A DNA stretch of 63,034 nt from an uncultured Bacilli bacterium (GTDB lineage: Bacteria > Bacillota_I > Bacilli_A > RF39 > UBA660): contig CALVQO010000001.1 in NCBI GenBank assembly GCA_944358145.1, positions 1 through 63,034 on the forward strand. Direction: 5' to 3'. The position numbers and the translations under genes were made by a program. Every line of letters starts with the position of its first letter. Within the stretch, counting starts at the first letter, position 1. Below are positions 2,670 to 54,863 of this stretch, piece after piece. Under the pieces are notes generated by a model. That model saw nothing but the letters and a program-made list of their open reading frames with translations, had not been told where the DNA came from and searched no databases.

Positions 2670-4133
2670 ATGAAGAAAAAAGAAAAGAGATATGGTCTTT
2701 TAAAGGGTGTATTAATTCTTGTTATACTTGCATTTGTTCTTACTTGGGTTATTCCTGCAGGTGGGTATACTTCATCTGGTTTTACTGAAACAGGAATGGC
2801 TAGATTAGGACTTTATGATGTTGCATATTCAATTTATTATGCATTCTCATTTGCAGTTGACAAAATTGTACTGTTACTTGCTATAGGTGCTTTTTATGGA
2901 GTACTTACTAGAACACAAGGCTATGAAAGAATCGTATCTGGTATTGCAAGTAGAATTAAACATAAGAAAGTGGCAGTTGTTGTTATTTCTGTTATCTTAG
3001 CAGCTTTAACTAGTTTACTTACTCAAACCTTTGTTGTTTTAATTTTTGTTCCATTTATTATTTCTATATTAAATCGAATGAAATTAGATAAAATGACAAT
3101 TTTAGCTACAACATTTGGTTCTATTTTAGTTGGTATTATGGGAGCTACTTATGGAACAGATGGCGTTAGTATGTTTAACTATTATTTAGGTTTTACTACT
3201 ACTACTGCAACTGATTTACCATATTCTATACCACCAGCACTTTTAGTTCGGGCAGGTATTTTACTCATTGGGTTAGTCTTATTTAATTTCTTTACTTTAG
3301 CACATATGAGTAAAGTAGATAAGAAAGCTCAAAGTGTTGATTTGTTTGAAGTAGAAGTAGCAGAGGATAGAACTAAGAAAACAAAAACAATGATTCCAAT
3401 TATTGTTGTTGGGGTAGTATTGTTTGCTTTAGTCATCTTAGGATTCATTAATTGGAGTGATAATTTTGGAATTGAAGCTTTTAATGATTTCCATGATTTT
3501 ATTACTACTGATATTCGAATTGAAGGATCTACTGAATCTAGTGATGATTTCTTTATTTTCCAAGATTTACTTGGTACACAAATGAGTGCTTTAGGTACTT
3601 GGAATAATATTACTATTAGTTCAATATTGATCTTATTTACAGTTATTTTGGCTTTATGTTATCGTTTTAAATTTAGTGAATTTATTGATAGTATAAAGCA
3701 TGGTGCTAAAAAGATGTTTCTTCCATCTGTTTGTATTGTTGGAGCATATCTACTCATGATTGTTGTTTATCAATCAACCTTTTTAGCAACAATTGTAAAT
3801 AGAATTCTTACTTTAACTGATAGCTTTAATATAGCTACGATGACACTTTCTGCTTTAATCTTAAATATTTTCCATACTGATTTAGGATTTACAGGTTGGG
3901 TTATTGGAGCGTATTTACCAGTAGAGTATGCTGATTATATGAATCCGGTTTATACTATGTTTACTTCTTTATATGGATTTGTTCAATTTTTTATTCCTAC
4001 AAGTATGATATTAGGAGTTGGACTTCTTTCTTTAAAAGTTAAATATAGTGACTGGTTAAAATATATTTGGCGTTTCTTAGTAGGTATGTTTATTTGTTTA
4101 CTTGTAATATTTATTCTTATGACTATAATTTAA
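2670..4133 (+). CDS. YfcC-family (C4-dicarboxylate-anaerobic-carrier-like) integral membrane transporter
   Basis: At least 10 predicted TM helices. N-terminal LTWVIPAGGY motif is typical of YfcC-type proteins. ATG 2670 lies behind TAGGAGGGA. Confidence 0.6.
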   Translation: MKKKEKRYGLLKGVLILVILAFVLTWVIPAGGYTSSGFTETGMARLGLYDVAYSIYYAFSFAVDKIVLLLAIGAFYGVLTRTQGYERIVSGIASRIKHKKVAVVVISVILAALTSLLTQTFVVLIFVPFIISILNRMKLDKMTILATTFGSILVGIMGATYGTDGVSMFNYYLGFTTTTATDLPYSIPPALLVRAGILLIGLVLFNFFTLAHMSKVDKKAQSVDLFEVEVAEDRTKKTKTMIPIIVVGVVLFALVILGFINWSDNFGIEAFNDFHDFITTDIRIEGSTESSDDFFIFQDLLGTQMSALGTWNNITISSILILFTVILALCYRFKFSEFIDSIKHGAKKMFLPSVCIVGAYLLMIVVYQSTFLATIVNRILTLTDSFNIATMTLSALILNIFHTDLGFTGWVIGAYLPVEYADYMNPVYTMFTSLYGFVQFFIPTSMILGVGLLSLKVKYSDWLKYIWRFLVGMFICLLVIFILMTII

Positions 4134-4224
4134 AAGGGAGCTTTTATGCTTCTTTTTTCTTTCTTTATATTGAAAATATAAGAAAATCATGTTATAATTT
4201 GAATTATGAGGTTGGTGTTATACT

Positions 4225-4971
4225 ATGAGTAAATTTAAAGTTTTAATTTTTACCCTGGTTTTATTCTTTGCTAGTACAACTTATGCTCATGCTGCATGTG
4301 ATGCAAATGAATTAAATACACTTAGGGGTGTTGCATCTAATGTTAGAGTAAGTTATGAAGAGATGAGAGAACCACTTGATCCTTCAGAATATACTCCACC
4401 AGATGGAACAAGTTCAGATGATTATACTGCCTATTATACGTTCTTTCGAGTTTATATTACAAATTTAACAGAAGATATTTATGTAGAAGTACGTAATAGT
4501 GCTACAGGAGAGACAACTACTTATACTTATGATCAAAGTGATAATGGAACAATTACTTTTGATTGGGAAGAAATTACGGTAATGGTTAATTATACGATTA
4601 CAGTATATAGTTCAAGTAATACTAATTGCCCTGATACAGAATTATATACGTTGTATTTGACTACTCCTAGATTTAATCAATATAGTACTTATGATTTGTG
4701 TGAGGGAGCAGAAGATTTCTATTTGTGTTATGAGTATTTGTCAGTTGAAGATGTTTCTTTTGGAGAGTTTGTCGAATTAGTTGAACGTTATAAAGCTGGA
4801 CAAATTGATGATGGTAGTAACGTGGAAGAACCTGATGATGGAGGTAATGGGTTTATTGCATTTTTGGGTGATCATTATATAGCAATTATTATTATTGCTG
4901 TAGTGGTTATTGCTGTGGGGGTTACTGTAACGGTGATAATAGTGAAAAAGCAAAGGAGAAGAGTAGTATGA
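4225..4971 (+). CDS. exported protein with C-terminal membrane anchor; first gene of the Tad-like operon
   Basis: Signal peptide ending AHA. Acidic Cys-containing ectodomain. C-terminal TM helix plus KKQRRRVV stop-transfer tail. Its stop overlaps the next start (ATGA at 4968). Confidence 0.6.
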   Translation: MSKFKVLIFTLVLFFASTTYAHAACDANELNTLRGVASNVRVSYEEMREPLDPSEYTPPDGTSSDDYTAYYTFFRVYITNLTEDIYVEVRNSATGETTTYTYDQSDNGTITFDWEEITVMVNYTITVYSSSNTNCPDTELYTLYLTTPRFNQYSTYDLCEGAEDFYLCYEYLSVEDVSFGEFVELVERYKAGQIDDGSNVEEPDDGGNGFIAFLGDHYIAIIIIAVVVIAVGVTVTVIIVKKQRRRVV

Positions 4972-7900
4972 AGAAAATACTAAAAAGTATTAGCTTATTT
5001 GCTATTACAATTATGGCTGGCTGTTTATTTATCAGTCATGTAAATGCTGAGACTAGATATGGATCTGTTCATACAAGTGGTGTTACACCAGGATCAACAA
5101 CAACAACAAAGACTTCTACTCATCAGCCACTTCAAGATTTAGGACAAATTGTTATTAAAAAAGAAAATGGCGAAGTTACAGAATATCGTGGTTCCATGCC
5201 GTTTTATATTCATAGTGAAAGCGGAACTGGGTTACCATTTTACTGTTTAGATGCTAACTTAAATGGTTTTGGTACATTAAAGGCTACAAGATTTTTACTA
5301 GGTGATTTTGAAGATAATGTTTATTCTTATGACTTAGCAGTAATGCATGTTATGTTATCTGATGCTAGTTATGAAATTAAGAGTTTAGTTATTCGTACTT
5401 TAACTGCTACATGGAATCACGGCAGAAGTGGTTCTGGTGTAGGGGTTACAGAGGATTCAATGGCTCTTACTAGTGCATATTATGGAATTGCTTATGACTG
5501 GATTACTTCTGATAGTGGTATTAGAGCTAGTTATGATACTATTGCTGGTAGTTTTTCATCAGGAATTATTAGTACTTTAAGTTCTCTAAGTAGTAGAAGT
5601 AAAGGTTATACCTTTAATGATGCGATGGTTGGAAGAGATCAAGCTAAACAATTATTTGCAGAAGCTTTAGAAATTGCTGCTGAATATTTGTCAGGTGATG
5701 GAACTACTCAAGTAGTAGAAGAACCTGCTTCTTCTTGGTCTACTTATCAAGTTGAAGAAAGAGAATATGGTGAATATCATTCTTTCCAAACTACACAAAC
5801 ATTTACTTTAAAGAATTTTACTAATGATGGAAATGCCTCATTTGTTATTGATACTTTAGAGTATGAAGAGGCTTTGGAAGATCTTGGTGTTATTGATCAA
5901 CCTAGAATTGTTGGAATTAAAATTAATGGTACAGATTACACAAATAATTGGGGTTCTTTTTATGGGGCTATAGGTCAGAACCTTTTAGAACCATTAAATA
6001 GTTCCAATGCTATTACTGATGAAATTACTATTGAAATTACTATTGAGTTTTTTGGGGCTACTAATGTCCCAGAAGAATTACAAGGTACATATGGTAATTT
6101 GAATTGTGGTCAACAACCAATGAAATGGCATATGGATTATACTTATAATGATACGGGATTAAATGGTGAATATAGTAACTATTTAGGTGTTGTTTGGGAA
6201 GCTACAAGAAATGATAGCGATTCTGAACATCAAAGATTTGTAAGTATTGAACCAATTGATAATGCTGAAGAAAATGAAGGCGTTTCAGATTCTGTTAATG
6301 GTGAAGTATCATTAATTGATGGATGTAATTGTGATGATTTAGTAGATGCATGTATAGCTTCTGGAAGTCTTGATAGTGAAGAATGTGATGAATTATTTGA
6401 AGCTGACTGTGGTGAATGTGATGAGCTTTATGTTGAATGCAAACTTGGCGATCGAACAGCTTGTGATACTTACAGAGAAACATGTAGTGCTAAATGTGAA
6501 AGTGATGTTTCAACGTTTGAATGTTGTACTGCTGATGGACAATGGTTAGAGATTTCTCAATCTGATAATATAGATGCTTATATTCATGGACCTGATGAGC
6601 CAACTATGTGTTTTGTTAATAAAGTGGATAATCAAAAAGACGAAGAAGATGGTTATCTTGATGCTGAAGGTATAAAAGATGATGTAGATAATTCTTATAC
6701 AGAAATTAAGGGTAAGAAATATTGCTTAGTTTCTTGTAAAGAAGATTATAATATGTCTATGCCTGCCGCTAAACTTGTAAATGCAGGTAGATACTTTACT
6801 TTTAACGCTGCAATAGATGGTACTAAGACATGTTATACTAATACAATTGATAGAGAATTATATAACGAAGATATCATTGAAATTCAAAAGAGAATATATA
6901 CTGCATATAATGGATATATTAGATATTGGACTGCTCTGAATCAGGGACATCCGCATAGTGAAGAGCTTGAGGAAATCGTTACTAGTTGTACTCCAAATTG
7001 TAACAGAAATACTGAAACAACGGGTCAGTATATTCCTGGCGCTACTACTGATCCATTTGATTATGTTATTTATGAACCTGATTTTGATGAAAATACTGGT
7101 CAAGTAACTAGTTTAAATCCTCAGAAAGTTACTGGTGACGTAATTTCTCAGGATTCTAAAGTTACGCCTAATACTAATGGGCCAATTTCATGTCCGTATA
7201 AATATCTGGGTCCAGATGGAAAGGAACATACAGGACATCGTGATAAAAGTTGTACTTGGTATAGTTATGAGGAGTATACTGGTGAAGATTTAAGAACTGA
7301 TTTAGAAAAAGAAATGAATGGTTATAAAACAGCTCTTGAAACTGCTTTGGCTGATTATAAAGCTGCAATTGAAGAGTATAATTCATGTTCTGAGTGGAGT
7401 TCTGAAATAAAATATAAACCTGATGTTTATTATGATTATGAAGAGGATTATTTAGCTGACCATTATAATAATCGTGGAGAAATGGATCCAACTGTTGAAA
7501 GTAAAAATAATTCTGAATGGTACTGTAATGGTAATTTTACTTCTTTTGTTGATTATGGTAAAATTAATAACGAATATGATCAATGTAATAATTCTACTGG
7601 ATATCAAACTCATGAAATGACTTATATAATTTGTGATCCTGATAAGAGGGAATGTAAAGAAGATAAAAAACAGATGTCAGATGCTACTTATAAGAAGGTT
7701 ACTTCTCAAATAAGCGTAACCTATAAACCAGCTACAATGTTCTATAATGAATATCCTAGTGGAATGGTTGGACCTATTGATGATATGCCAGATCAGAATG
7801 CTATACCAATTGAAAATGCTTTACCTGTTGCTCTTGATACAGCTCGTGGTATTTATGAATATTCAGTTCATGTTAATAACTTGGGTGAGTATTATGATAC

Positions 7901-8654
7901 TGACGATGTAGGACGTTTAGTTGGTGGTAGTGGCCGTCAAGATGCTGTTGTTAATGATGGTTCATTTGATGTATATCTTGGTGATGATGGCTCTATTCAA
8001 TATATGTGTGCTTATCTAGTTAATATGGGAACTATGGATGAAGACTTTAATATTGTTTGTGACTGGGATAATTGTGAAGATGGTGACTGTACATCTAATT
8101 GTGTTGGTCCAAACTGTGAAACTGGTGATGAAGAATGTTATGGTGAAGACTGTGTGTCTAAGTGTATTGGCGCTGGATGTATATACGATTCATATGCAGG
8201 TTCATCATTACTTGAAAGAGTTATATCTTTAAATAATTTATTCCCTAATGGAACTGATTCTTATAACTGGAATCGTGAAGTAAATGAAAAGGCTGCTGAA
8301 ACTATTGATCAAATAGAGGATGCTGGAAATGCTATTTATGATGAAGAACCAATTTTAAGTGTTACTATATCACCAAGTACTGCTAGAGAGATTAAAGCTT
8401 ATAATGATGATGCTGAAAGCGATGGTGGATATTCAAATTCTACATTGATCTGTGAATCTGTTGGTGGATATGATATGATTGGATGTTATAGTACATTTAT
8501 TGATGATTTAATTGATGGTGTATATGGCTCTGATATTATTAATGATCGAAGTTTGATTATGGGCGGAAGCTATCGTAGCAATAGTAGTAATTATTTCAAA
8601 TTATGGGATGGTACAATAGATGCAGAAAGCATGCTTGGACCATCTTGGTATTAG
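4968..8654 (+). CDS. 1,228-aa secreted cysteine-rich protein of unknown function
   Basis: Long uninterrupted ORF in AT-rich DNA. Signal peptide (..ISHVNA/ET). Two dense Cys clusters at about nt 6324-6530 and 8058-8180. No C-terminal anchor. Confidence 0.8.
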   Translation: MKKILKSISLFAITIMAGCLFISHVNAETRYGSVHTSGVTPGSTTTTKTSTHQPLQDLGQIVIKKENGEVTEYRGSMPFYIHSESGTGLPFYCLDANLNGFGTLKATRFLLGDFEDNVYSYDLAVMHVMLSDASYEIKSLVIRTLTATWNHGRSGSGVGVTEDSMALTSAYYGIAYDWITSDSGIRASYDTIAGSFSSGIISTLSSLSSRSKGYTFNDAMVGRDQAKQLFAEALEIAAEYLSGDGTTQVVEEPASSWSTYQVEEREYGEYHSFQTTQTFTLKNFTNDGNASFVIDTLEYEEALEDLGVIDQPRIVGIKINGTDYTNNWGSFYGAIGQNLLEPLNSSNAITDEITIEITIEFFGATNVPEELQGTYGNLNCGQQPMKWHMDYTYNDTGLNGEYSNYLGVVWEATRNDSDSEHQRFVSIEPIDNAEENEGVSDSVNGEVSLIDGCNCDDLVDACIASGSLDSEECDELFEADCGECDELYVECKLGDRTACDTYRETCSAKCESDVSTFECCTADGQWLEISQSDNIDAYIHGPDEPTMCFVNKVDNQKDEEDGYLDAEGIKDDVDNSYTEIKGKKYCLVSCKEDYNMSMPAAKLVNAGRYFTFNAAIDGTKTCYTNTIDRELYNEDIIEIQKRIYTAYNGYIRYWTALNQGHPHSEELEEIVTSCTPNCNRNTETTGQYIPGATTDPFDYVIYEPDFDENTGQVTSLNPQKVTGDVISQDSKVTPNTNGPISCPYKYLGPDGKEHTGHRDKSCTWYSYEEYTGEDLRTDLEKEMNGYKTALETALADYKAAIEEYNSCSEWSSEIKYKPDVYYDYEEDYLADHYNNRGEMDPTVESKNNSEWYCNGNFTSFVDYGKINNEYDQCNNSTGYQTHEMTYIICDPDKRECKEDKKQMSDATYKKVTSQISVTYKPATMFYNEYPSGMVGPIDDMPDQNAIPIENALPVALDTARGIYEYSVHVNNLGEYYDTDDVGRLVGGSGRQDAVVNDGSFDVYLGDDGSIQYMCAYLVNMGTMDEDFNIVCDWDNCEDGDCTSNCVGPNCETGDEECYGEDCVSKCIGAGCIYDSYAGSSLLERVISLNNLFPNGTDSYNWNREVNEKAAETIDQIEDAGNAIYDEEPILSVTISPSTAREIKAYNDDAESDGGYSNSTLICESVGGYDMIGCYSTFIDDLIDGVYGSDIINDRSLIMGGSYRSNSSNYFKLWDGTIDAESMLGPSWY

Positions 8655-8673
8655 GAAAGAGGTGCTGTAGAAA

Positions 8674-9096
8674 ATGACGCAATCTTCATATTGGGGTTAT
8701 TGGTTAATTACTTTTGGTGTTGCCATTGTAGGTTTAATGATTTCAGTACAAGGAATTACTACTAATACCACCCAAGATAGTTATGCGATAAGAGAAATAG
8801 CTGAAGCTTCAATGCTTGAAGCTGTAGATTATGGTTATTATCGTGATTATAATGAAATTAAAATTAATAAAGAAAAATTTATGGAAGTCTTTATTAGAAT
8901 GACTGCTGAAGTTATGGGAGTGAATGATTCATATGAAGTTAACTTTTATGCTATTTATGAAGCTCCCCCTAAGGTCAGCGTTGAAATAAAAACTAATAGT
9001 GGTACTAATTTTATTAATACTGGTGATTATGATACTGTTAGTAGAATAGATGCTATTATTCAGATTCATGCTGAAGAAGTAGGAGAGGAAGAATAA
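8674..9096 (+). CDS. small N-terminally anchored protein (possible minor pilin / pseudopilin-like component)
   Basis: RBS GAAAGAGGTG. Single N-terminal hydrophobic helix (WLITFGVAIVGLMISV) followed by a 110-aa soluble domain. No class III signal motif seen. Confidence 0.5.
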   Translation: MTQSSYWGYWLITFGVAIVGLMISVQGITTNTTQDSYAIREIAEASMLEAVDYGYYRDYNEIKINKEKFMEVFIRMTAEVMGVNDSYEVNFYAIYEAPPKVSVEIKTNSGTNFINTGDYDTVSRIDAIIQIHAEEVGEEE

Positions 9097-9106
9097 GGAG
9101 GATAAA

Positions 9107-9949
9107 ATGGGGAATATAGTAACAACGATTAAAAGATTTTTATCAAATAAAAATACTATTACTATACTTGGTGTGTTAGCTGGAATTGTAGTTTTGTATT
9201 TAGGTTATAATTATCGTGTTGATCAAGCGATTGACACAATAGCTATTCCATATGCTAGAGAAACAATTACAGCAACTTCAGAAATTACTCAGGAAATGGT
9301 CGATACAACAGAAGTTCTAAGATCTTTTGTTTCCGCTAATAGTAATGTTATTACTGGTATGGATGCTTTAATTAATCAAACAGATCCTAGGTGTATTACA
9401 TATGGAACTAGTGTTCCACAAGGTGCTTTTTTCTACACTGAACAAGTTGTTTCATGTAGTTCAGCACCAAATGATCCACTTAAGAATATGCCTGATGGTT
9501 ATGCGCCATTCTCTTTATCAGTAGATATTCATACTACTTATGGTAATTCTATGTATCCTGGTGATTTTATCGATTTGTATGTTAAAATGACTAGTCGTGA
9601 TAATCGAATTATATTTGGTAAATTTATTGAAAAAATTGAAATTTTGGATGTTCGTGATAGTCAAGGTATTAGTGTATTCTTGACTAGTGAAGCGAGAACT
9701 CCTGCAGAATTATTGTTTGCAGTTCCAGAGGATTTGTTCTTGTTATTAAGTAAAGCAACCTATGTTAACAGTGTAGAGATTATACCAGTACCTAGAAATG
9801 CTTCTTATACCACAAATCCAGGAGAGACAGCTGTAACTAGTGAATACCTACGAAATGAAATTGAATATTATACTCAGGATATTCCGGATGAAGTAGTTCA
9901 ATATCCACCAAGTAGTAGTAATAATGATGATACAACTACAACGGAATAA
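9107..9949 (+). CDS. CpaB/RcpC-like Flp-pilus assembly protein
   Basis: N-terminal TM, a SAF-like segment (ITATSEITQEMVDTTEV), then a PGDFIDLYV ... IEILDVRD pattern as in CpaB. RBS AAGGAGG. Confidence 0.65.
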   Translation: MGNIVTTIKRFLSNKNTITILGVLAGIVVLYLGYNYRVDQAIDTIAIPYARETITATSEITQEMVDTTEVLRSFVSANSNVITGMDALINQTDPRCITYGTSVPQGAFFYTEQVVSCSSAPNDPLKNMPDGYAPFSLSVDIHTTYGNSMYPGDFIDLYVKMTSRDNRIIFGKFIEKIEILDVRDSQGISVFLTSEARTPAELLFAVPEDLFLLLSKATYVNSVEIIPVPRNASYTTNPGETAVTSEYLRNEIEYYTQDIPDEVVQYPPSSSNNDDTTTTE

Positions 9950-9977
9950 AGATAAAGAATAAAAGGGAGGTGCTTAT

Positions 9978-11066
9978 GTGAATGATGCTATATTTTCACA
10001 AATTGATTTTGGACCGTTAAAAGAATTTATTGATATTGATGATATTACCGATATTTCTTATACTAATGGTGGTCAATTGTGGTTAAAAAGTTTGTCTAAG
10101 GGTGTGTATCGTGTTGAAAGGCCAGAGATAAATAATGCTTTAATTGAAAAATTAGCTTTTCAATGCTCTAACGTAATGGGTAAAACATTCAATATGGCAC
10201 ATCCTTTTTTAGATGCTGAGTCTACTGAGCTTCGTCTTAACTTTGTTCACGATTCAATTGCAACGAATGGTATAGCTTTAGTTATTCGTAAAACTCCTGC
10301 TAAAATTCGTTTGAATCGTGAAAAGTTACTTAACGAAGATTATGTTAGTGCAGATTTACTTGATTTTCTTCTTAATTGTGTTCAGGGACATGCTAATATT
10401 ATTGTTAGTGGTGAAACTGGTAGTGGTAAAACTGAGCTTGTTAAATATTTAGCTAGTACAACTAAAGAAAATGAAAAAATTATTACTATTGAAGATACTT
10501 TGGAGTTGCACTTAGATCGTATATTTCCACATCGGGATATTGTAGCAATGAAAACTAATAATATTGCTAGTTATTCTGAAGTGTTGGTTACTTGTATGAG
10601 GCAGAACCCAATATGGATATTATTATCTGAGGTTCGTAGTGCAGAAGCTGTAATGGCAGTTCGTAACTCTATTTCTTCTGGACACCATATTATTTCTACT
10701 ATCCACTCAGATAAAGCTGCATTGATTCCTATGCGTATGTATAGTTTAATTGAGTCTAATATTGATGTTGAACAATTTGTTACAACTATTCACAGATATG
10801 TACAAATAGGTATTTATGTTAAGGGTTATATGAGTGCAAAGTATGGAAGATTCCAAAGAGAAATTATGGAAATTTGTGAATTTTATGTAGATGAGAATAA
10901 TAAACCTCAAGTTAATACAATTTATCAGAAAACTTTAGATGGAAGATTTACTCTTAATAATCCAACTAAACATTTAAGAGATTATTTAGCAATTCAGGGT
11001 GTTATTTTGGAAGAAGATTTATTTCATTTGAATGGCAAAAAAATGGATACGATAGAATCTTTATAA
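9978..11066 (+). CDS. CpaF/TadA/VirB11-type secretion ATPase
   Basis: Walker A GETGSGKTE, ITIEDTLEL (Asp box), Walker B ILLSEVR, His box STIHS. GTG start 5 nt after AAGGGAGGTG. Confidence 0.85.
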   Translation: MNDAIFSQIDFGPLKEFIDIDDITDISYTNGGQLWLKSLSKGVYRVERPEINNALIEKLAFQCSNVMGKTFNMAHPFLDAESTELRLNFVHDSIATNGIALVIRKTPAKIRLNREKLLNEDYVSADLLDFLLNCVQGHANIIVSGETGSGKTELVKYLASTTKENEKIITIEDTLELHLDRIFPHRDIVAMKTNNIASYSEVLVTCMRQNPIWILLSEVRSAEAVMAVRNSISSGHHIISTIHSDKAALIPMRMYSLIESNIDVEQFVTTIHRYVQIGIYVKGYMSAKYGRFQREIMEICEFYVDENNKPQVNTIYQKTLDGRFTLNNPTKHLRDYLAIQGVILEEDLFHLNGKKMDTIESL

Positions 11067-11079
11067 AAGGAGGAAAATC

Positions 11080-11976
11080 ATGGAATTTGTAATAATATTT
11101 TTTATCGCGATGTTTGTTGTTATATATCGTAAGAATGATGGTTCTGAAACCTTTTATAAGTTTGTAAAATCTCAATTTGGGATAGTTTATGAAAAATATG
11201 CTCCTTATAGTTATAAAACGATAAGTGCTAAAATGAAAGAATTAAAGCAAGAATATACAGTAAAAGATTATGTTTTACAAATTGTAGTTATTGGTGGACT
11301 TGCAGCAGCGATTGCTTATTTGTACTTTTATAGTTTAATTGTTGTGATTATCTATGTAGCTATAGCTGTAGCTTTTATTCCTTATTTAGCTTTCTTAAGA
11401 AGTAAAAGATTATATAGTGAGTATATTTTTGAACAAATTCAAGTATATACTACTAATGTTATTATGGAATTTAATACTACTCAAAGTTTTGTTAAATCAT
11501 TAGAGGGTGTTAGAGATTCAGGAATTCTTGAGGATCCAGTACTAGAAGATGTTAAGACAATGATTAATATGTCTTATCAAAATGGTACTATTGATGAATC
11601 TATTGAGTATTTTAATCAAAAATATCCTTATTATATGGTCAAGAATATGCATCAATTATTTTTACAAATTACTAAAGAAGGTGCTAAAGATTCAGGTGAA
11701 TCTTTGGAGAATATGAGTATGGATATTGATGCTTTAGTTGAAGGTGTTTATCGTGATCAAATGGATCGTAAACAGTTTCATACTAAGTTTATTACTTTCG
11801 CATTAGTTTTATTCTTCTTAGTATTAGTTATGCAAGTATTACTGGGAAAAGATAGTTATTTGCAACTTCTTGATTTGTGGTATGTTCATATTGTTCTACA
11901 TGCGATTATTATTATTAATTGTTATTTCCTTCTTAGTGGAGAGAAATATTATAATGAAAATGTGGGGGTAGAATAG
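11080..11976 (+). CDS. TadB-like (T2SS-F family) inner-membrane platform protein
   Basis: Topology is N-terminal TMs, an about 130-aa cytoplasmic helical domain, and C-terminal TMs. It lies directly after the ATPase. RBS AAAGGAGG. Confidence 0.55.
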   Translation: MEFVIIFFIAMFVVIYRKNDGSETFYKFVKSQFGIVYEKYAPYSYKTISAKMKELKQEYTVKDYVLQIVVIGGLAAAIAYLYFYSLIVVIIYVAIAVAFIPYLAFLRSKRLYSEYIFEQIQVYTTNVIMEFNTTQSFVKSLEGVRDSGILEDPVLEDVKTMINMSYQNGTIDESIEYFNQKYPYYMVKNMHQLFLQITKEGAKDSGESLENMSMDIDALVEGVYRDQMDRKQFHTKFITFALVLFFLVLVMQVLLGKDSYLQLLDLWYVHIVLHAIIIINCYFLLSGEKYYNENVGVE

Positions 11977-11977
11977 T

Positions 11978-12766
11978 ATGCAGATAGAAATTGCTATTTT
12001 GGCAGTAATTATTTTCTTTGTACTATCTTATAGTGGTAAGATTAGTATTAATAAGTTAGTTGCAGATAATGAAATGTATTTAAGAAGATTAAAAGAAAGT
12101 GATTATGACTTTTATGTTAAAGCTAAATATGGGGATTCTGTTAATCCGGATTTGCTATTTAATAAAAGAATTAGAAATGCTTTAATTATTACTGTTTTAG
12201 TATTTTGTTTACTTATTTCTAATATGTCTTATGTGTATGCTTTAGTTTGTATTGTAGTTGGATTTGCTTTCTTTAAATTAGATTATATTAATTTAAAAAA
12301 TTATTATAAGAAACATTTGCATGAAATTGATACGATGTTACCTTATTATTTAAAGGGACTTGAAATATTAATTCAACATTATACTGTTCCAGTTGCAATA
12401 GGTAAATCTTTAGATGATGCACCAGATATATTTAAGGATGGGTTGAAAGAATTAATTAATGCAATAAATGCTGGTGATGATACTATTGAGCCTTATATGG
12501 CATTTGCAAGACAGTATCCAGTTAGAGATTCTATGAGAATGATGCGTCTTTTATATCGGTTAAGTTTAGGTAGACAAGAGCGTAAGCAAGAACAATTACT
12601 AGCATTTTCAAGAACGATTTCTAGTTTGCAACAAAAAGCAAGAGAAACAAAATATAAGAATCGTTTGGATAAAATGGAAAGTAAAACAATGAGTATGCTT
12701 GTAACTACTGGCCTTGGAGTAGTAATATTGCTAATATTTGCTGTATTATTACTGATGAATGTTTAG
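11978..12766 (+). CDS. TadC-like (T2SS-F family) inner-membrane platform protein
   Basis: Same topology class as the preceding gene. Its start is 1 nt after the previous stop. Confidence 0.55.
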   Translation: MQIEIAILAVIIFFVLSYSGKISINKLVADNEMYLRRLKESDYDFYVKAKYGDSVNPDLLFNKRIRNALIITVLVFCLLISNMSYVYALVCIVVGFAFFKLDYINLKNYYKKHLHEIDTMLPYYLKGLEILIQHYTVPVAIGKSLDDAPDIFKDGLKELINAINAGDDTIEPYMAFARQYPVRDSMRMMRLLYRLSLGRQERKQEQLLAFSRTISSLQQKARETKYKNRLDKMESKTMSMLVTTGLGVVILLIFAVLLLMNV

Positions 12767-12787
12767 ACAAAATTTGACAGTAAAAAC

Positions 12788-12816
12788 TTGACAATGGACT
12801 TAAGTTAGGATACAAT
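12788..12816 (+). promoter_or_regulatory. consensus sigma-A promoter for the two-TM protein gene
   Basis: TTGACA (12788-12793), a 17-nt spacer, TACAAT (12811-12816). A second TTGACA sits at 12774. Confidence 0.7.
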
Positions 12817-12847
12817 TAGTATAGATGAAGAAAGCGAGGAATTTTAT

Positions 12848-13252
12848 ATGTTAATTATGGCTAGACCTGCTATTTGTTCAGATTTATGGGAAATTTGGCA
12901 AATTATTGGATGGGTACTATGGATTTTTAAAATTGTTATACCAATTATTATTATTCTTTTTGGTATGATCGATTTAGGAAAAGCAGTAGTTGCAAGTAAA
13001 GATGATGAAATTAAGAAATCAGTTAAATCACTTGTTATGAGAGCGATCGCTGGTGTAATTATCTTCTTTATTCCAACAATTATTGGTTTAATCTTTGGTA
13101 TCGTTGGTGATTTCTCAGAAGTAGAAGCAGAGTATAATATATGTCGTAGTTGTATAACTAATCCAGGTGGTTGTGAGGCTGCTGCACAAAGTGGTTGTGC
13201 TGAGTTAGGTGGTACTTGGATGGATGGTACTTGTAGTATACCTGAAGAATAA
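12848..13252 (+). CDS. two-TM VirB2/Maff2-like small membrane protein with Cys-rich C-terminal tail
   Basis: Two hydrophobic helices separated by the charged loop DLGKAVVASKDDEIKK. The loop and second helix align without gaps to the ICE protein at 53949-54143. The tail has 6 Cys. It has its own promoter. Confidence 0.6.
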   Translation: MLIMARPAICSDLWEIWQIIGWVLWIFKIVIPIIIILFGMIDLGKAVVASKDDEIKKSVKSLVMRAIAGVIIFFIPTIIGLIFGIVGDFSEVEAEYNICRSCITNPGGCEAAAQSGCAELGGTWMDGTCSIPEE

Positions 13253-13263
13253 AAGATTTTAGG

Positions 13264-13289
13264 GAATGATTAAGTTCATTCTTTTTTTT
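13264..13289 (+). terminator. intrinsic terminator, identical copy of the lysS terminator
   Basis: GAATGATTAAGTTCATTCTTTTTTTT is 26/26 identical to 2534-2559. Confidence 0.8.
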
Positions 13290-18973: not shown

Positions 18974-19194
18974 GAATAGGGATTCTGTAATGGAATCTTT
19001 CTTTTGTTGAACGGGTATTAGTTTCGCTAGTCCTTTTTGGGTATCTTTTATTCATTATGTTTTTTTATGAATGAAGAAGACTTATCATTAGTAGAATATT
19101 AAGCAAATATGTGAGATGCCTTTTATTTAAATAAAAAATGCAAGAAATTTAAAGTTTGTAAACAAATATGTCGAACTTTGTCGAACGGTTTTTC

Positions 19195-19223
19195 TTGCTT
19201 TTTTAATGGTTAAGTATCATAAT
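19195..19223 (+). promoter_or_regulatory. putative promoter of the candidate type I toxin mRNA
   Basis: TTGCTT (19195-19200), 17 nt, CATAAT (19218-19223). Confidence 0.45.
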
Positions 19224-31805: not shown

Positions 31806-32183
31806 GTGATTATCTTGAAAGTAAATAATAATCGTGATTATGAATCAATGAAAACAGAAGCATATTATGATCATCAATATAAAGCAACAGATAAAGAAGG
31901 ATATCCAGAAGCAGGATGTTGTGATATGAATATGGGTATGGGTATGGGAATGGCTATGCCTAATATGATGGGAGAAACCATCCCTGGAGTAGTATGTCCA
32001 CCGGTTTATGAGTGCCCTAGAGAAACCATATGCCATCGATATATTTGTCATGAAGTTCCCCATATTATCCCATGTAATACGAGAATTATTAATCATCATA
32101 TTTATCGTCATACTTATGCACCAACTTATTCTTGTTGCGAAGAGAATGAAGTACAAAATGTTTATGAAAGAAGATGCTGCTAA
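31806..32183 (+). CDS. CotD-like spore coat protein (start uncertain)
   Basis: Cys/His-rich with HEVPHIIPCNTRIINHHIYRHTY, as in the CotD family, and an MGMGMGM repeat. Possible starts are at 31806, 31815 and 31848. Confidence 0.55.
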   Translation: MIILKVNNNRDYESMKTEAYYDHQYKATDKEGYPEAGCCDMNMGMGMGMAMPNMMGETIPGVVCPPVYECPRETICHRYICHEVPHIIPCNTRIINHHIYRHTYAPTYSCCEENEVQNVYERRCC

Positions 32184-35164: not shown

Positions 35165-36028
35165 ATGAATGAAATTGTAAAAGATGAAGTGATTATTGAA
35201 AATTTAATTTATGAAGTTCGTGGAAAGCAGGTAATGCTTGATAGTGATTTGGCCAAACTCTATCAAGTTGAAACGAAAAGAATTAATGAAGCAGTTAGTA
35301 GAAACGTCGAAAAATTTCCTGAAAGGTTTTGTTTTAGAATTACTGAAAAAGAATTTGATTTTTTGAAGTCGCAAATTGCGACTTCAAAAGGTGGCTCTAG
35401 AAAAGGACACTCAGTTTTTACTGAGCAAGGAGTTGCCATGTTAGCTACAATTCTTAAGTCTAAAGTGGCTACTCAAGTAAGTATTGCCATAATGGATGCT
35501 TTTGTTCTCATGCGTAAATATATTTCAGGTAATTTAATTGAACAGCAAAAACTTTATGATTTGGTATTAGAGGATCATCATAGAATAGATAGGCTTGAAG
35601 ATACATTTCAAAAATTTGAAGAAAAACGAAAAATCCATGAAATATATTTTAATGGCCAAATTTATGATGCTTATTCTAAGATATTGGGTATTTTTAATTG
35701 TGCTAAAAAGGAATTAATCATCATTGATAGTTATGCTGATAAGAAAATTCTTGATATTATTAAGGACTTAGATATAAAAGTAGTGATTATAACCAAGAAG
35801 AATCATTTATTGAAAGAGTCAACCGTAGAAGAGTATCATAAAGAATATCATAATTTAACATTAAAATATAATGATACATTTCATGATCGGTATTTTATAT
35901 TAGATAAAAGGGTTGTTTATCATTGTGGGGCTAGTATCAATCGAATTGGTTATAAAACATTTTCAATTAATTTGATTGATGATAAGGATATTTGTTGTTT
36001 GTTAATTGATAAAATAAATAGGATTTAG
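35165..36028 (+). CDS. ORF6N (KilA-N-related) DNA-binding domain protein with C-terminal HDRYFILD domain, copy 1
   Basis: The ORF6N block is IYEVRGKQVMLDSDLAKLYQVETKRINEAV..N..KFPERF. The C-terminal block is IIDSYADK ... FHDRYFILD ... YHCGASINRIGYK. Confidence 0.75.
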   Translation: MNEIVKDEVIIENLIYEVRGKQVMLDSDLAKLYQVETKRINEAVSRNVEKFPERFCFRITEKEFDFLKSQIATSKGGSRKGHSVFTEQGVAMLATILKSKVATQVSIAIMDAFVLMRKYISGNLIEQQKLYDLVLEDHHRIDRLEDTFQKFEEKRKIHEIYFNGQIYDAYSKILGIFNCAKKELIIIDSYADKKILDIIKDLDIKVVIITKKNHLLKESTVEEYHKEYHNLTLKYNDTFHDRYFILDKRVVYHCGASINRIGYKTFSINLIDDKDICCLLIDKINRI

Positions 36029-36069: not shown

Positions 36070-36948
36070 ATGAATAATATTGATTTAAAAGAAGATAAAA
36101 TTGAAAATTTAATTTATGAAATAAGAGGAAAACAAGTAATGCTTGATAGTGACTTAGCAAAACTCTATCAAGTTGAAACGAAAAGAATTAATGAAGCTGT
36201 AAAAAATAATAAAGATAAATTTCCTGAAAGATTTTCGTGGAAATTAACAAAGGATGAAAGTAAAACTTTTTTGGACGAAAATTTCGACCAAAAAATGGAG
36301 ACTCGAGGCGGTCGATATAGTTGTCCGCGGGTTTTTACTGAGCAAGGGGTTGCCATGCTAGCCACAATTCTTAAGTCTAAAGTCGCTACTCAAGTAAGTA
36401 TTGCCATAATGGATGCTTTTGTTGCTATGCGTAAATATATATCTAATAGTTTAATAGAACATCAAAATCTTTATGATTTAGTATTAGAAGATCATCACAG
36501 AATAAATAATCTTGAAGATACATTTCGAAAATTTGAAGAGAAAAGAAAAGTGAATGAAATCTATTTTGATGGACAGATTTATGATGCTTATTCTAAGATA
36601 TTAGATATTTTTAAGAGTGCTAAAAGTAAACTTATTATTGTTGATTCTTATGCCGATAAAATATTACTTGATATCATTAAAGTAGTAGATGTTAAAGTAA
36701 CGATTATTACTAAGTCTAATAATTTATTAATGAAACAGGATATAGAAAATTATAACAAACAGTATCATAATTTAACTGTAAAGTATGATAATACTTTTCA
36801 TGATCGATATTTTATATTAGATAATAAAATACTTTATCACTGTGGGTCTAGTATTAATAGGATAGGATATAAAACTTTTTCTATTACTTTAGTAGGTGAT
36901 GCTGATATGTGTAGATTATTAATGGATAAAATAAATAAAATTGTATGA
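36070..36948 (+). CDS. ORF6N domain protein with C-terminal HDRYFILD domain, copy 2 (tandem paralog)
   Basis: Same architecture as copy 1. One DNA segment is 89/93 identical between the copies (36331-36423 versus 35414-35506). Confidence 0.75.
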   Translation: MNNIDLKEDKIENLIYEIRGKQVMLDSDLAKLYQVETKRINEAVKNNKDKFPERFSWKLTKDESKTFLDENFDQKMETRGGRYSCPRVFTEQGVAMLATILKSKVATQVSIAIMDAFVAMRKYISNSLIEHQNLYDLVLEDHHRINNLEDTFRKFEEKRKVNEIYFDGQIYDAYSKILDIFKSAKSKLIIVDSYADKILLDIIKVVDVKVTIITKSNNLLMKQDIENYNKQYHNLTVKYDNTFHDRYFILDNKILYHCGSSINRIGYKTFSITLVGDADMCRLLMDKINKIV

Positions 36949-36974: not shown

Positions 36975-37755
36975 ATTTTAATAATTTCTTTTCTATATAA
37001 GTTATGATTTTATATAGAACAAAAGAAATAATAATTAATATGACTATACCACTCATTACCATATTTAAGTTAAATACTTGAGTTCCATAGATAATTAAAT
37101 AACCAAGGCCACTTTTACTAACTAAAAATTCACCCATAATTACACCAATTAGAGTCATGGATATATTTAGTTTTAAACTAGATATAATAGTTTTATAGGA
37201 AGCGGGTATAGTTAATTTAAATAAGATGTCAAATCTTGAAGCGTTAAATGTTTTAAATAGTTTAATTAAGTCTTTATCAATATTATTAAAACCATTATAA
37301 ATTGACATAATTCCTACGATTAAATTAATTAGGAGAGCCATAACAATAATTGATTTGGTGTTAGCTCCGGCTATAATAATAATTAATGGACCTAGTGCTA
37401 CTTTGGGTAGGCTGTTTAACATTGTTAAATAAGGGTCAACTATTTTATTTAAAGTTTTAAATTCATAAAGAATAATGGCTATGATAAAACTTAGGGTTAT
37501 TCCTAAAATGAAGGCTATTAGTGTTTCATATAAAGTTGTTAAGATATGACCAATTAAGTTATAATTAAGATAGAGATTTATTATGCTTTCTATTACTTTA
37601 GAAGGGGATGAAAAGATAAAAGGGTTTATTATTTTATATTTGCTTAATAATTCCCAAATGATTAAGAATCCTACTAATATTAATATTTGAAAAGTGATAA
37701 CAATTATTTTTTCTTTTCTTATTTTTTTTAAATAATTTTTGTGTTCTTTACTCAT
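36973..37755 (-). CDS. ABC transporter permease (NitT/TauT family)
   Basis: 6 TMs and the BPD-type EAA-like loop LNSLPKVALGPLIII. Overlaps the ATPase gene. Confidence 0.8.
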   Translation of the reverse strand: MSKEHKNYLKKIRKEKIIVITFQILILVGFLIIWELLSKYKIINPFIFSSPSKVIESIINLYLNYNLIGHILTTLYETLIAFILGITLSFIIAIILYEFKTLNKIVDPYLTMLNSLPKVALGPLIIIIAGANTKSIIVMALLINLIVGIMSIYNGFNNIDKDLIKLFKTFNASRFDILFKLTIPASYKTIISSLKLNISMTLIGVIMGEFLVSKSGLGYLIIYGTQVFNLNMVMSGIVILIIISFVLYKIITYIEKKLLK

Positions 37756-38494
37756 GAAACATAAGATCCTTCCAAATTAAATCATAATAATTAGCAAAAT
37801 TTTTATCTTTTCTGTTTTCAATTGGTGTTCCTTCTTTTTCTCTTTTAATTTTATAAATATTTTTAATGGTACATGGTCTATCACTTAATACGATTACTCT
37901 ATCTGAAATACTTATTGCTTCGGCTAAATCATGAGTAACCATTAGAGCTGTTTTCCCTTCCTCTTTAATAATTTTATAAACATCATCACTTACCTTTAAT
38001 CTTGATTGGTAATCTAGTTTTGAAAATGGTTCATCAAGAATTAATATGTCTGGTTTAAGTGCTAGAGTACGAATTAAAGCTACTCTTTGTCTCATTCCTC
38101 CTGATAATTCAAAAGGACGTTTATCCATAAATTCTAATAATCCATATTTTTTAAATAAATCTTTTACATAGGCTATGTTTTCTTCTGTTTTTTCTTTTTT
38201 TATTTCTAAACTTAGTAGGGCATTGTCTATTACTTTCCTCCAAGATAACATGGAATCGCTTTGAAGCATATATCCTAGTTTTAGATTTTCTTTAAGTTCA
38301 ATATTTCCTTTAGTTAGATTATCCATATTCGTTAATATATTTAAAAGGGTTGATTTACCACAACCTGATGGCCCTACAATAGATACAAATTCACCTTCAT
38401 ATAAATCAAATGAGATATCCTTTATAGCTTCTATTTCATCTTTTTTATTGTAATAAACTTTGTTTAGATTTTTAACACTTAATAATTTATTCAT
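37748..38494 (-). CDS. ABC transporter ATP-binding protein (NitT/TauT family)
   Basis: Walker A GPSGCGKST, signature LSGGMRQR, Walker B ILILDEP. Confidence 0.9.
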   Translation of the reverse strand: MNKLLSVKNLNKVYYNKKDEIEAIKDISFDLYEGEFVSIVGPSGCGKSTLLNILTNMDNLTKGNIELKENLKLGYMLQSDSMLSWRKVIDNALLSLEIKKEKTEENIAYVKDLFKKYGLLEFMDKRPFELSGGMRQRVALIRTLALKPDILILDEPFSKLDYQSRLKVSDDVYKIIKEEGKTALMVTHDLAEAISISDRVIVLSDRPCTIKNIYKIKREKEGTPIENRKDKNFANYYDLIWKDLMFHE

Positions 38495-39371
38495 CTAAAT
38501 TATGAATTAAATCACTATAAGGGACATAATCTTCAAGTAAATTGTTGTCAATTAACATATCTTGTAAATTAGTAAAACTACTCTCTGTTATATATGGTGT
38601 AGATAGCCATGAATCATATTTTTTATAATTATCAATGATGGTAATGATATCATTTAGAGCACTATCTGGAAATTGTGGTAATATTACATTTGCAGTAGTT
38701 TGGCTATCATTATTTAGAACGAATTCTAAACCTTTAGCGATAGCTCTAGTAAAACCACTTAATAATTCTTCATTGTTTTCTAAATAGCTTTTACGAGTAT
38801 AGAAGGCTGTATATGGTACTTCACCAGAAAGTCTTCCAATAGAATCAACAATACAAGAATCTGATACGTTTACTACTGTTGTTGCAGTAGGTTCAAATAG
38901 ATTTACATAGTCTCCAATTCCACCAATAAATGATCCAGATAGACTAGCAAAATCAATTGAGTAATTTACATTAATTTTATTTACATCAATACCAGCATTT
39001 TTCATGGCGTTTAAGAAGTTAACTGCAGGCATTCCTCCAGCACGACCAACAAGTATTTCACTACCATAAAGGTCAGTAAGTTCAAATTCACTTGAACAGT
39101 CTCTTGCTAAAATGAATTGTCCATCTCTTTTAGTAAGTCCTGCAAAAGTTACTAAATAATCTTTTTCACCACCAGCATAAACATAAATAGATGATTCAGT
39201 ACCAGCAAAACCTACATCAACAGTATCAGACAAGACTGCTGCACTAACTTTGTCTGCACCACTAGTTAAGATTAAATCAATTTCTATTCCTTCCTCTTCA
39301 AAATAACCATTTTCAATTGCTACATACAACGGAGCATAAAAAACACTATGTGTTACTTCTGCTACCATCAC
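38487..39371 (-). pseudogene. NMT1/SsuA-like substrate-binding protein gene, 5-prime truncated by element insertion
   Basis: The frame starts inside the mature domain (..AEVTHSVFYAPLYVAIENGYFEEEG) with no signal peptide or lipobox. An in-frame stop lies 10 codons upstream at 39402-39404. The recombinase gene end overlaps its first 26 nt. Confidence 0.7.
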
Positions 39372-41052: not shown

Positions 41053-41112
41053 AACAATCAACTCCTATGTCATTGATTATTATATCACATCATGGTATCA
41101 TAAGGAATCTTT

Positions 41113-41140
41113 TTTAAAAAAAATAGTTTATAAAAAACTA
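41113..41140 (-). terminator. terminator after the NUDIX gene
   Basis: Minus strand TAGTTT-loop-AAACTA followed by T8. Confidence 0.5.
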
Positions 41141-41578
41141 TTTAATAGAATAACCTAATTTCTCTAATGCTAGTATGGTAAATGGAGATAGTTGTTTCTT
41201 GTTTAATTCATTTATGCTATACCAATTTGCACCGTCTGAATCTAGTCCATCTGCATCATTTTTTAAAGTATTCTCATTAGTATCTACTGTATATAAGATA
41301 CCTACGTGATGTAAATCTTCCCATAAATCAGGTTCCATTTCCCACTTAATATTAGTAGCAACAGCATCAAGTAATTTGTAGTTAGTTATGCCTATTCCAG
41401 CTTCTTCCATTATCTCTCTTTTTAAAGTTTCAAAAGGTTGTTCAGTATGTTCAATCCCGCCACCTGGTAGATCTAGCTTTCCTTTATAACCACCTCTAGC
41501 TTTTCTTACAAGGGCAATTTTATTATCACTAATAATTATACCATATGCTCCTACATGAGTTTTAACAATTGTTTCCAT
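41138..41578 (-). CDS. NUDIX hydrolase
   Basis: Nudix box GGGIEHTEQPFETLKREIMEEAGI. The METIV start is 8 nt after AAAGGA. Confidence 0.85.
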   Translation of the reverse strand: METIVKTHVGAYGIIISDNKIALVRKARGGYKGKLDLPGGGIEHTEQPFETLKREIMEEAGIGITNYKLLDAVATNIKWEMEPDLWEDLHHVGILYTVDTNENTLKNDADGLDSDGANWYSINELNKKQLSPFTILALEKLGYSIK

Positions 41579-43788: not shown

Positions 43789-43874
43789 TTTTCCTCCTTT
43801 TTTCTGAATATTTTACTATAATATTGCAATTTGTCAAGTTAAGATTTATAATAATAGTGATTTGGGGGATTTTT

Positions 43875-54810: not shown

Positions 54811-54863
54811 TAGTGCAAAATATTTAAATATTTGTTAAAATATAAGCAAATATGGAGGCTATT

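Follow-up and report, generated by a model that had tools for sequence, protein, structure and literature searches.

The DNA analyzed here, hereafter the window, is a stretch of 63,034 nucleotides (contig CALVQO010000001.1, assembly GCA_944358145.1) from an uncultured Bacilli bacterium of the RF39 lineage. At positions 4225-13252 of its forward strand lies a cluster of eight open reading frames (ORFs), g1 to g8 (Table 1), in which likenesses to Tad pili are combined with likenesses to type IV secretion systems (T4SS), in particular, to that of the conjugative plasmid pLS20. The original prediction of eight closely packed genes on the plus strand is borne out: all eight ORFs were recovered with the same boundaries, and a GGAGG-like Shine-Dalgarno motif precedes every start codon. 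The gaps between consecutive ORFs measure -4, 19, 10, 28, 13, 1, and 81 nucleotides (nt), with the stop codon of g1 and the start codon of g2 sharing the sequence ATGA in a 4-nt overlap. A single transcript with gaps of 0-30 nt had been proposed, and this description fits g1 to g7 (-4 to 28 nt) but not g8, which probably has its own promoter, the 81-nt gap in front of it carrying a promoter-like site. As judged by eye, TTGACA-type hexamer pairs precede g8 in relatives as well. On these sequence features, g1 to g7 probably form a tight operon, whereas g8 is an adjacent unit that probably also has transcription of its own. The terminator-like hairpin downstream of g8 was missed by the hairpin scan, its stem having just two G-C pairs.

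Table 1. Positions in the window of the cluster genes, the adjoining signals, and the genes of a separate downstream element (TM, transmembrane; Cys, cysteine; aa, amino acids; ICE, integrative and conjugative element)
Feature	Position	Strand	Description
Terminator-like hairpin	4132-4157		Ends the upstream permease gene and precedes the promoter at 4170-4198
Sigma-70-like promoter, putative	4170-4198	+	TTGAAA-17-TATAAT with extended TG, upstream of g1; consensus match only
g1	4225-4971	+	248 aa; Sec-type signal peptide, C-terminal TM helix, basic tail KKQRRRVV
g2	4968-8654	+	1,228 aa; secreted, signal peptide, 40 Cys
g3	8674-9096	+	DUF5411 protein; N-terminal TM helix, small alpha/beta ectodomain
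g4	9107-9949	+	CpaB/RcpC-like; N-terminal TM helix, SAF-like region, PGDFIDLYV beta-clip region
g5	9978-11066	+	GTG start, 362 aa; secretion ATPase of the VirB11/TadA/FlaI branch
g6	11080-11976	+	About 5 TM helices, cytoplasmic helical domain; TadB/C-like platform candidate
g7	11978-12766	+	3 TM helices, cytoplasmic helical domain; probable g6 paralog, second platform subunit
Promoter-like site	12788-12816	+	TTGACA-17-TACAAT in the g7-g8 gap; 11 of 12 consensus matches
g8	12848-13252	+	Two-TM hairpin with basic loop; conserved Cys before TM1, Cys-rich tail after TM2
Terminator-like hairpin	13264-13289	+	GAATGA/TCATTC stem and run of eight T, 3' of g8; read from sequence
N6_N4 methyltransferase			ICE gene
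TED/SpaA LPXTG adhesin	55830-58400		ICE gene
Sortase	58372-58995		ICE gene
Flg_new protein			ICE gene
TrbL_4	61537-62679		T4SS gene of the ICE
DUF5592	62679-62954		T4SS gene of the ICE

The system is neither isolated nor unique but belongs to a family with at least 519 matching stretches, recovered by scanning a single genome for each species; 80 species loci were examined in detail, of which 21 (L001-L021) make up the clade of the window and 59 come from other species. The matching stretches listed all derive from metagenome-assembled genomes (MAGs) of uncultured gut bacteria labeled 'Bacilli', 'Tenericutes' or 'Mycoplasma sp. CAG:776'-type, and the close relatives of g5 number in the thousands. 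The order g1-g2-g3-g4(-g4')-g5-g6-g7 is kept in all 80 species loci, and because it recurs there and in strains from several samples, the arrangement is not due to chance. Across these loci, identity to the window proteins is 76-97% for g5, about 56-97% for g6 and g7, 42-94% for g3, 30-85% for g4, 25-76% for g1, and 23-57% for g2. Within the window clade, g5 is 92-97% and g6 and g7 are 79-97% identical, compared to 64-95% for LysS, and contigs from several samples share g3 proteins of identical sequence, with unchanged neighbors; the high identities of g5 to g7 and the recurrence of identical g3 point to strong purifying selection. The flanking genes are lysS (693.7 bits; its product has no exact match on record) and a permease gene on one side and those for tRNA-Asn, AddB, and AddA on the other, and the arrangement lysS-permease-g1..g8-tRNA-addBA is syntenic throughout the clade, in agreement with the resident site among core genes that had been proposed. 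Judging from these comparisons, the locus in the window clade is resident, vertically inherited, and strongly selected. A phage origin was ruled out: there is no functional PHROGs match, and neither phage records nor viral contigs contain close relatives of the cluster.

The two leading genes encode, as anticipated, an exported protein with a C-terminal anchor and a secreted Cys-rich giant: the signal peptides of both, the TM helix of g1, and the 40 Cys of g2 were confirmed. The g1 protein, with four Cys of which at least three are conserved, was found in 72 of the 80 species loci in addition to the window and has no family match in Pfam, NCBIfam, or PHROGs; g2 likewise matches nothing in these collections or among PDB sequences, a profile search included. 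About 30 of the 40 Cys of g2 are conserved, residues 1031-1071 form an invariant nine-Cys block, and conservation is highest in the C-terminal third of the protein, whereas N-terminal residues 100-560 are the most variable. This pattern suggests that g2 might be an exposed, diversifying recognition protein, the conserved end of which would dock on the machine. Second g1-g2 cassettes adjoin the core operon in two loci (L056, 378-5119 and 5246-9188; L079, 2447-8378 and 13188-18312), where the duplicated cassettes also carry g4 (L056) or g3 (L079); these extra copies may be alternative surface modules.

Only two of the cluster proteins, g3 and g5, pass Pfam cut-offs. The g5 protein reaches 93.3 bits with T2SSE (PF00437), against a cut-off of 24.9, contains the GETGSGKTE motif reported originally, and appears by eye to have intact Walker A, Asp-box, Walker B, and His-box. 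It stays below all NCBIfam equivalog cut-offs (98 of 373 bits for TIGR03819 and 108.6 of 250 for VirB11), the best partial matches there being VirB11, TadA-family conjugal ATPase, TrbB, FlaI, and ComGA, and in the PDB it is approximately equidistant from CpaF (61.8 bits, the best), FlaI (56.2 bits), and VirB11 (54.3 bits). Among plasmids, the best tblastn matches of g5 are the 'VirB11-like' proteins of the pLS20 family (31-32% identity over 85% of the query) and a protein encoded on a Priestia koreensis plasmid; the hidden Markov model (HMM) of the g5 family scores 160.9 bits with gene 37 of pLS20 and 195 bits with the Priestia ATPase. At the C-terminus of g5 (window positions ~11010-11063), relatives share a conserved short tail (IESL, IETL, EDIL, or EEVL) that, in some lineages, is set off from the catalytic domain by a 100-180-residue low-complexity linker rich in P, Q, S, T, and N (for example, L060 9986-11608, L067 10001-11623, and L079 10001-11392); the tail looks like a tethered docking motif.

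The g3 protein scores 162.5 bits with DUF5411 (PF17424; gathering cut-off 30, E 6.4e-48), and its HMM matches the gene directly 5' of the ATPase gene in both pLS20 (gene 36) and Priestia. One homolog of g3 (L010, 7759-9102) is a 447-aa protein with a C-terminal VanX/DdpX-like D-Ala-D-Ala dipeptidase domain (E 7.8e-6) that shows SAHNTACAVD and EWWHYQD motifs, and the presence of this wall peptidase domain places the C-terminus of g3 outside the membrane. The DUF5411 proteins of other lineages are 233-283 aa long, or 508 aa in L061, and carry unrelated extensions.

The labels of the remaining core proteins come by way of an intermediate, a collinear, homologous locus on the Priestia koreensis plasmid NZ_CP061869 (160.7-169.5 kb), which is the closest full match to the cluster. 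The family HMMs recognize this locus with E-values of 6e-6 (g3), 1e-34 (g4), 3e-58 (g5), 2e-12 (g6), and 1e-14 (g7), and the g2 HMM gives a weak match, in two collinear segments, to the Ig-like protein at the equivalent position. The likeness extends over a large Ig-like protein, DUF5411, SAF/CpaB, CpaF/VirB11, a 'T2SS F family' protein, a 279-aa homolog of g7, and a DUF4320-like protein. Unlike the cluster, the Priestia locus is plasmid-borne, has a ParA-like gene between those for CpaB and the ATPase, and lacks g1, g8, and the Cys-rich giant; no T4SS gene lies within ~6 kb on either side of it. The g4 protein does contain the PGDFIDLYV...ILDVRD segment on which its CpaB-like label had been based, but in direct comparisons, the label fails, with scores below the cut-off for RcpC in Pfam (16.5 bits) and TIGR03177 in NCBIfam (17.9 bits) and, for the g4 profile, a sole PDB match to RcpC (9gzr) at E 0.63. 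It is recovered through the SAF protein of Priestia, which is matched by the g4 HMM (E 1.4e-34) and itself matches CpaB (TIGR03177) with an E-value of 2.7e-13, at 49.8 of 71 bits.

The proposed T2SS-F platform identity of g6 and g7 likewise has no direct counterpart and survives via the Priestia locus only: neither protein shows a T2SSF match at E<=1, and searches of Pfam, NCBIfam, PHROGs, and PDB, whether with the single sequences or with profiles, yielded nothing. The 'T2SS F family' protein of Priestia is matched by g6 (HMM E 2e-12, hhalign 92%) and scores 24.2 bits with T2SSF, the cut-off being 25.2; its neighbor is matched by g7 (HMM E 1.2e-14, hhalign 96.9%), and in the alignment of the g7 family, T2SSF appears in 2 of 44 sequences (43 distant relatives and g7). 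The comparison of g6 and g7 by hhalign is not significant with shallow alignments, but with a deeper g7 alignment, the two proteins align in register (E 4.3e-4, probability 34%), which suggests paralogy. In these comparisons, the Priestia intermediate is the only solid basis for the putative CpaB-like and TadB/C-like labels of g4 and g6.

As for g8, which had been described as a VirB2/Maff2-like two-TM protein, the two TM helices stand, but the VirB2 label is not reached by direct score: T4SS_pilin (PF18895) yields 20.1 bits, with a cut-off of 26.6. Two paralogs of g8 in L078 give 16-19 bits in a similar register, and relatives encode g8 paralogs in arrays of 2-4. The g8 family has three invariant Cys, of which one immediately precedes TM1 and two follow TM2. 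Speculatively, these could tie both extracellular ends together by a disulfide, an arrangement that recalls the head-to-tail cyclized pilins of the VirB2/TrbC type.

The comparison with pLS20 brings these components together. In the plasmid, the order runs from the Tie adhesin (gene 34) through gene 35, the DUF5411-like gene 36 (25.5 bits with the Pfam model), the ATPase gene 37, and genes 38, 39, 40, and 41 to gene 45, within a region (genes 34-54) that resembles the cluster in having a large adhesin, small protein(s), DUF5411, a VirB11-like ATPase, and two polytopic proteins, in that order. The resemblance continues with an N-anchored protein (gene 40), tiny TM proteins (gene 41, present in two copies and 47 aa long), and, in gene 45, a two-TM T4SS_pilin protein that g8 matches only weakly, at the family level, and, in sister lineages of the window clade, with VirD4, VirB6-like, DUF5592, VirB4, and a wall hydrolase that come after. 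In the pLS20-type plasmid pNARUSE (L081, 12954-13184), gene 45 encodes a 76-aa two-TM protein that reaches 32.1 bits with T4SS_pilin, above the gathering score of 26.6. Collinear, full-length HMM matches connect g3 with gene 36 (E 3.9e-4), g7 with gene 39 (E 1.6e-3), and g6 with gene 38 (E 0.14), these E-values deriving from a database of 4,500 ORFs; with the pDSYZ homolog of gene 38, g6 gives an E-value of 0.0098. The matches of g3, g6, and g7 to pLS20 are each weak but together convincing. The differences are that the cluster is chromosomal, has an ATPase only ~31-32% identical to that of the plasmid, no detected relaxase, and an extra CpaB/SAF protein, that a Cys-rich g1/g2 pair takes the place of the thioester protein Tie, and that, in the window clade, the VirB4/VirD4/VirB6 part is not at the locus. 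The original prediction left room for the ATPase and platform proteins falling inside a characterized conjugation family; their nearest relatives do lie in a conjugation operon (~31%), but the genes concerned are uncharacterized. Indeed, pLS20 genes 36, 38-41, and 43-45 are given as 'Unknown' by Val-Calvo et al. (2021, PMC8557374), who report pilus homologs to be absent, and in the later literature, we found no function assigned to them. Gram-positive conjugation is said to lack a pilus, VirB2 homologs and, mostly, VirB11 (PMC8557374, PMC11730352, bioRxiv 10.1101/2025.01.22.634366); the absence of VirB2 homologs is stated for pLS20, too.

Further evidence comes from the lineages related to the window clade. 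In 42 of the 59 species loci outside the clade, g7 is followed by a cassette with a promoter-like site of its own. This cassette encodes a pair of small proteins (75-100 aa) that have a Cys-rich tail and an N-terminus (MKEATGELNMTVVTVVAIAAVAAFFY) that hardly varies; the second of the pair ends in CVWKG. Also encoded are two N-anchored proteins of 150-170 aa, one 330-aa protein (a5), and one to four g8 paralogs. The small proteins (start MKEATGELNMTV; MKEATGELN type) have no Flp match and no G/XXXXEY site. We considered a5 as a candidate TadZ and rejected it, there being no match in Pfam, NCBIfam, or PDB and no hhalign match to the ParA-like protein of Priestia. In metagenomes, the cassette mostly follows g7, with orphan copies lacking core genes nearby in L127, L128, L145, and L154; g8 aside, none of the cassette families was detected by HMM anywhere in the 63-kb window. 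A non-coding segment of ~320 nt on the minus strand of the window (19170-19487), with several hairpins and no conserved ORF, is 75.6% identical to L127/L128 12019-12332, ~1 kb 3' of the orphan pilin cassette; it matches nothing in Rfam at the gathering score, with potC sub-threshold only.

T4SS genes adjoin the module in several of these sister lineages, as became apparent from a survey of T4SS genes, with VirD4 and VirB4 of pLS20 as queries, and of relaxases within 10 kb of 160 related loci. In one arrangement (type A; L061, L066, L139, L164, and others), a5 and the g8 array are followed by TrbL_4 (VirB6-like), a DUF5592-like protein of ~105 aa, and a protein of ~190 aa; in loci that reach further (for example, L164, L142, and L116), a 594-aa VirB4 comes next and, in some, an M23 hydrolase. 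In another (type B; L129, L135, and L022), a5 is followed by a hydrolase with M23 and glucosaminidase domains, a ~250-aa protein, and VirD4. In L045, L041, L048, and L049, VirD4 lies directly 5' of g1 (T4SS-DNA_transf, 188 bits in L045), and VirB3-like proteins are also among the linked T4SS parts. The sister loci have housekeeping genes as neighbors: spoIVA and pyk adjoin the one in L045, and in L078 there is a gene that looks UvrA-like by eye. No relaxase of the MobP2 or MobL family, the two families tested, was found in the survey.

Given that the module adjoins VirB6-, VirB3-, VirB4-, VirD4-like, and hydrolase genes in sister lineages, its membership in a T4SS suggests itself. The reading that we prefer, with moderate confidence, is that the locus would encode, for a Gram-positive T4SS of the pLS20 type, the Tad-like sub-assembly and one VirB2-like protein; this T4SS would have become a resident chromosomal organelle of a large lineage of uncultured gut Bacilli. 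The original characterization as a hybrid of Tad and T4SS parts is, thus, largely right, with pLS20 genes 36-39 collinear and T4SS genes contiguous in sister lineages; the cluster is a variant on two known kinds of machine. Under this scenario, a g5 hexamer would dock on a membrane platform made of g6 and g7, and ATP consumption by g5 would pull small anchored subunits from the bilayer, namely, g3, g8, and, where present, the MKEATGELN-type and 150-170-aa proteins. The subunits could stack into a short filament that would pass the CpaB-like ring of g4 and the cell wall, with the co-translated, disulfide-rich g1 (the anchor) and g2 (the giant, variable protein) forming the adhesive or target-recognition part that the filament would carry or position. 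The whole would probably serve to bring the bacterium into contact with host material or another cell, in the manner of an adhesion or mating-pair arm of a T4SS, and what we infer as the function of g1 to g8 is the display of a filament or adhesin across the wall. In the window clade, the remaining T4SS genes and the small-pilin cassette would either be located elsewhere in the genome or have been lost; if lost, the module would work alone, as it may in Priestia.

Several observations weigh against this interpretation. Apart from its sub-threshold T4SS_pilin score, g8 shows no significant hhalign match to gene 45 of pLS20; the matches of g6 and g7 to pLS20 are weak singly and draw on collinearity; and for pLS20 genes 36-45, too, no function has been assigned (PMC8557374). 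The AlphaFold2 model of g3, with a predicted local distance difference test (pLDDT) score of 66.6, has no significant fold match, pilins included, in a Foldseek search of the PDB, and that of g6 (pLDDT 63.6) does not match a platform fold, with nothing below E 0.08 for either model. None of the 21 window-clade loci has a VirB4, VirD4, or VirB6 of the linked type or a pilin cassette within 10 kb, and none of these, nor the wall hydrolase, is present anywhere in the 63-kb window. The role proposed for g1 and g2 is read only from position, the start/stop overlap, and the pattern of conservation, and the filament subunit is not established, with g3, g8, and the small pilin-like proteins as possible candidates.

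Among the alternatives, one dispenses with a stable external filament altogether and regards the cluster as a dedicated exporter of g2 that would act as a type II secretion-like piston, with the release of g2 or its placement on the cell surface as its sole task. The constant position of the overlapping g1 and g2 at the head of the operon, the large surface proteins at the equivalent place in Priestia (Ig-like) and pLS20 (Tie), and the duplicated g1-g2 cassettes of L056 and L079, which suggest interchangeable cargo, are all compatible with such a role. Nevertheless, g1 and g2 have ordinary Sec signal peptides, so that a special membrane translocon is not needed, the pilin-like proteins and VirB2-like arrays of relatives point to a polymer, and PMC8557374 and PMC11730352 give no link between the export of Tie and genes 36-39. 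We consider a dedicated exporter unlikely.

Quite unlikely, too, is an ordinary monoderm Tad/Flp pilus, with the pilin, minor pilins, TadZ, and peptidase encoded elsewhere and the T4SS linkage incidental. The genes for the CpaB-like protein, the TadA-type ATPase of the same branch, with CpaF as its best PDB match, and two platform-like proteins do come in the classic order, and the separate unit of relatives, with its two small pilin-like and two N-anchored proteins, as well as the orphan cassettes, could be accommodated by a pilus of this kind. However, no Flp (G/XXXXEY), TadV, or TadZ was recognized, and no curated Tad cut-off was reached. In the 63-kb window, specifically, we found no Flp-like pilin with a G/XXXXEY site and no ParA-like protein of the TadZ/CpaE kind, and a crude screen combining the GxGD motif with TM helices identified no polytopic ORF resembling an A24 peptidase in the window or the first 80 species loci; the absence of a Flp pilin and prepilin peptidase from the window, noted originally, is, therefore, upheld. 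The small cassette proteins and a5 do not fill these gaps, lacking Flp and TadZ/ParA signals, respectively; g5 is of VirB11 size (362 aa) and scores far higher with pLS20 gene 37 than with CpaF, two scores that were obtained by different methods; and T4SS genes are repeatedly neighbors of the module, in many lineages as well as in pLS20. The cluster does not look like a classic Tad pilus. Absence at the locus does not prove absence from the genome because the pilin-like cassette of relatives can sit elsewhere, and the system is not provably pilin-less.

The homology to a conjugation operon, the adjacency of VirD4 and VirB4 in relatives, the tRNA gene just 3' of the cluster, and a G+C content of 0.30-0.34, slightly above that of the flanks (0.25-0.30), might suggest that the cluster is part of an active, horizontally spreading ICE for DNA transfer. 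We deem this improbable: the survey of 160 loci located no MobP2 or MobL relaxase, although other relaxases and integrases were not searched for, the lysS/addAB flanks are syntenic across the 21 clade loci, with identities falling together, and relatives reside between housekeeping genes (spoIVA, pyk, uvrA). The window does contain an ICE, in its 3' part (~53000-63034, continuing in L169 11143-21143), but this is a separate element, ~40 kb downstream of the cluster; past the end of the window, extending contigs encode an 808-aa VirB4, an M23 peptidase, a MobL relaxase, and a T4 coupling protein. The T4SS genes of this element were considered as the missing half of the cluster and rejected: they belong to a MobL-relaxase element and, compared to the Tad-linked T4SS proteins, reach just 25-33% identity. 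Finally, a functionless, decaying remnant, left in the window clade by loss of the cassette and T4SS core, both missing at the locus in all 21 clade loci, is hardly credible in view of the eight intact ORFs with Shine-Dalgarno sites, the high identities of g5 to g7 compared to LysS, and the identical g3 proteins in many samples.

Three further systems invite comparison with the Tad-like sub-assembly of a T4SS that we favor. An operon with DUF5411 in gut Clostridia, predicted to be 'secretion-related', was singled out by Miller et al. (2022, PMC9523054) as an unknown membrane machine, without a link to T4SS or pLS20 being drawn. It shares with the cluster a size of 8-9 genes, CpaF, a PilC/GspF-like protein, DUF5411 protein(s), and a large, internalin-like surface protein, and differs, by the published description, in that it has just one platform protein (434 aa), a different set of small genes, and no Cys-rich giant. 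The T4SS of Patescibacteria (bioRxiv 10.1101/2025.01.22.634366) has monoderm ancestry and is chromosomal and relaxase-less, with tandem, variable VirB2-like (PF18895) genes; it belongs to another phylum, with no VirB11/Tad-like module reported, so that the resemblance is an analogy only. The Tad-like pilus of TANB77 (PMC11680825) was considered as the same system and set apart by its published architecture, with a 640-aa ATPase and fused TadBC.

Other parts of the window bear on the organism itself. A GPR endopeptidase (24140-24877; 152.9 bits, above the cut-off) and a SpoIIP homolog (24946-25881; 121.5 bits vs. a cut-off of 123.15) are encoded there, along with a Cys/His-rich ORF of 125 aa (31806-32183) that is spore-coat-like by eye and has no family match. 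Because sporulation genes, SpoIVA beside the system in L045, LPXTG proteins, and sortases are present, the MAGs labeled 'Mycoplasma' or 'Tenericutes' look, from their gene content, like walled spore-formers. Two tandem paralogs of 287 and 292 aa (35165-36028 and 36070-36948) have near-identical N-termini (IENLIYE[VI]RGKQVMLDSDLAKLYQVETKRINEAV), and a large serine recombinase on the minus strand (39346-41061; CcrB/CcrC/XisF-like, E 8.5e-40), possibly a mobile-element integrase, sits in a minus-strand gene block in a region (37000-44000) where the GC skew turns negative.

Taken together, the findings reported here suggest that the pLS20-family plasmids and the chromosomes of several hundred species of gut Bacilli share, as a conserved block, the module consisting of VirB11, TadB/C, CpaB, and DUF5411 components together with a VirB2-like protein. 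The motor of this module is more conserved than LysS, and its exposed parts evolve fast. In a more far-reaching version, which we regard as doubtful, a relaxase-less, pLS20-type T4SS with a Tad-like filament would be a lineage-defining cell-contact organelle, and pLS20 genes 36-45 would encode a Gram-positive pilus or mating-pair apparatus; if this were true, the cells would attach to a partner or host and exchange macromolecules via hypervariable g1/g2 tips and VirB2-like arrays. The main value of these observations is that they tie an abundant gut lineage to the unexplained pLS20 genes 36-45 and yield a hypothesis on cell contact by monoderm T4SS that is tractable in Bacillus subtilis carrying pLS20. 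They point to a major surface structure, probably one that faces the host or a partner, in uncultured bacteria that are abundant in the gut.

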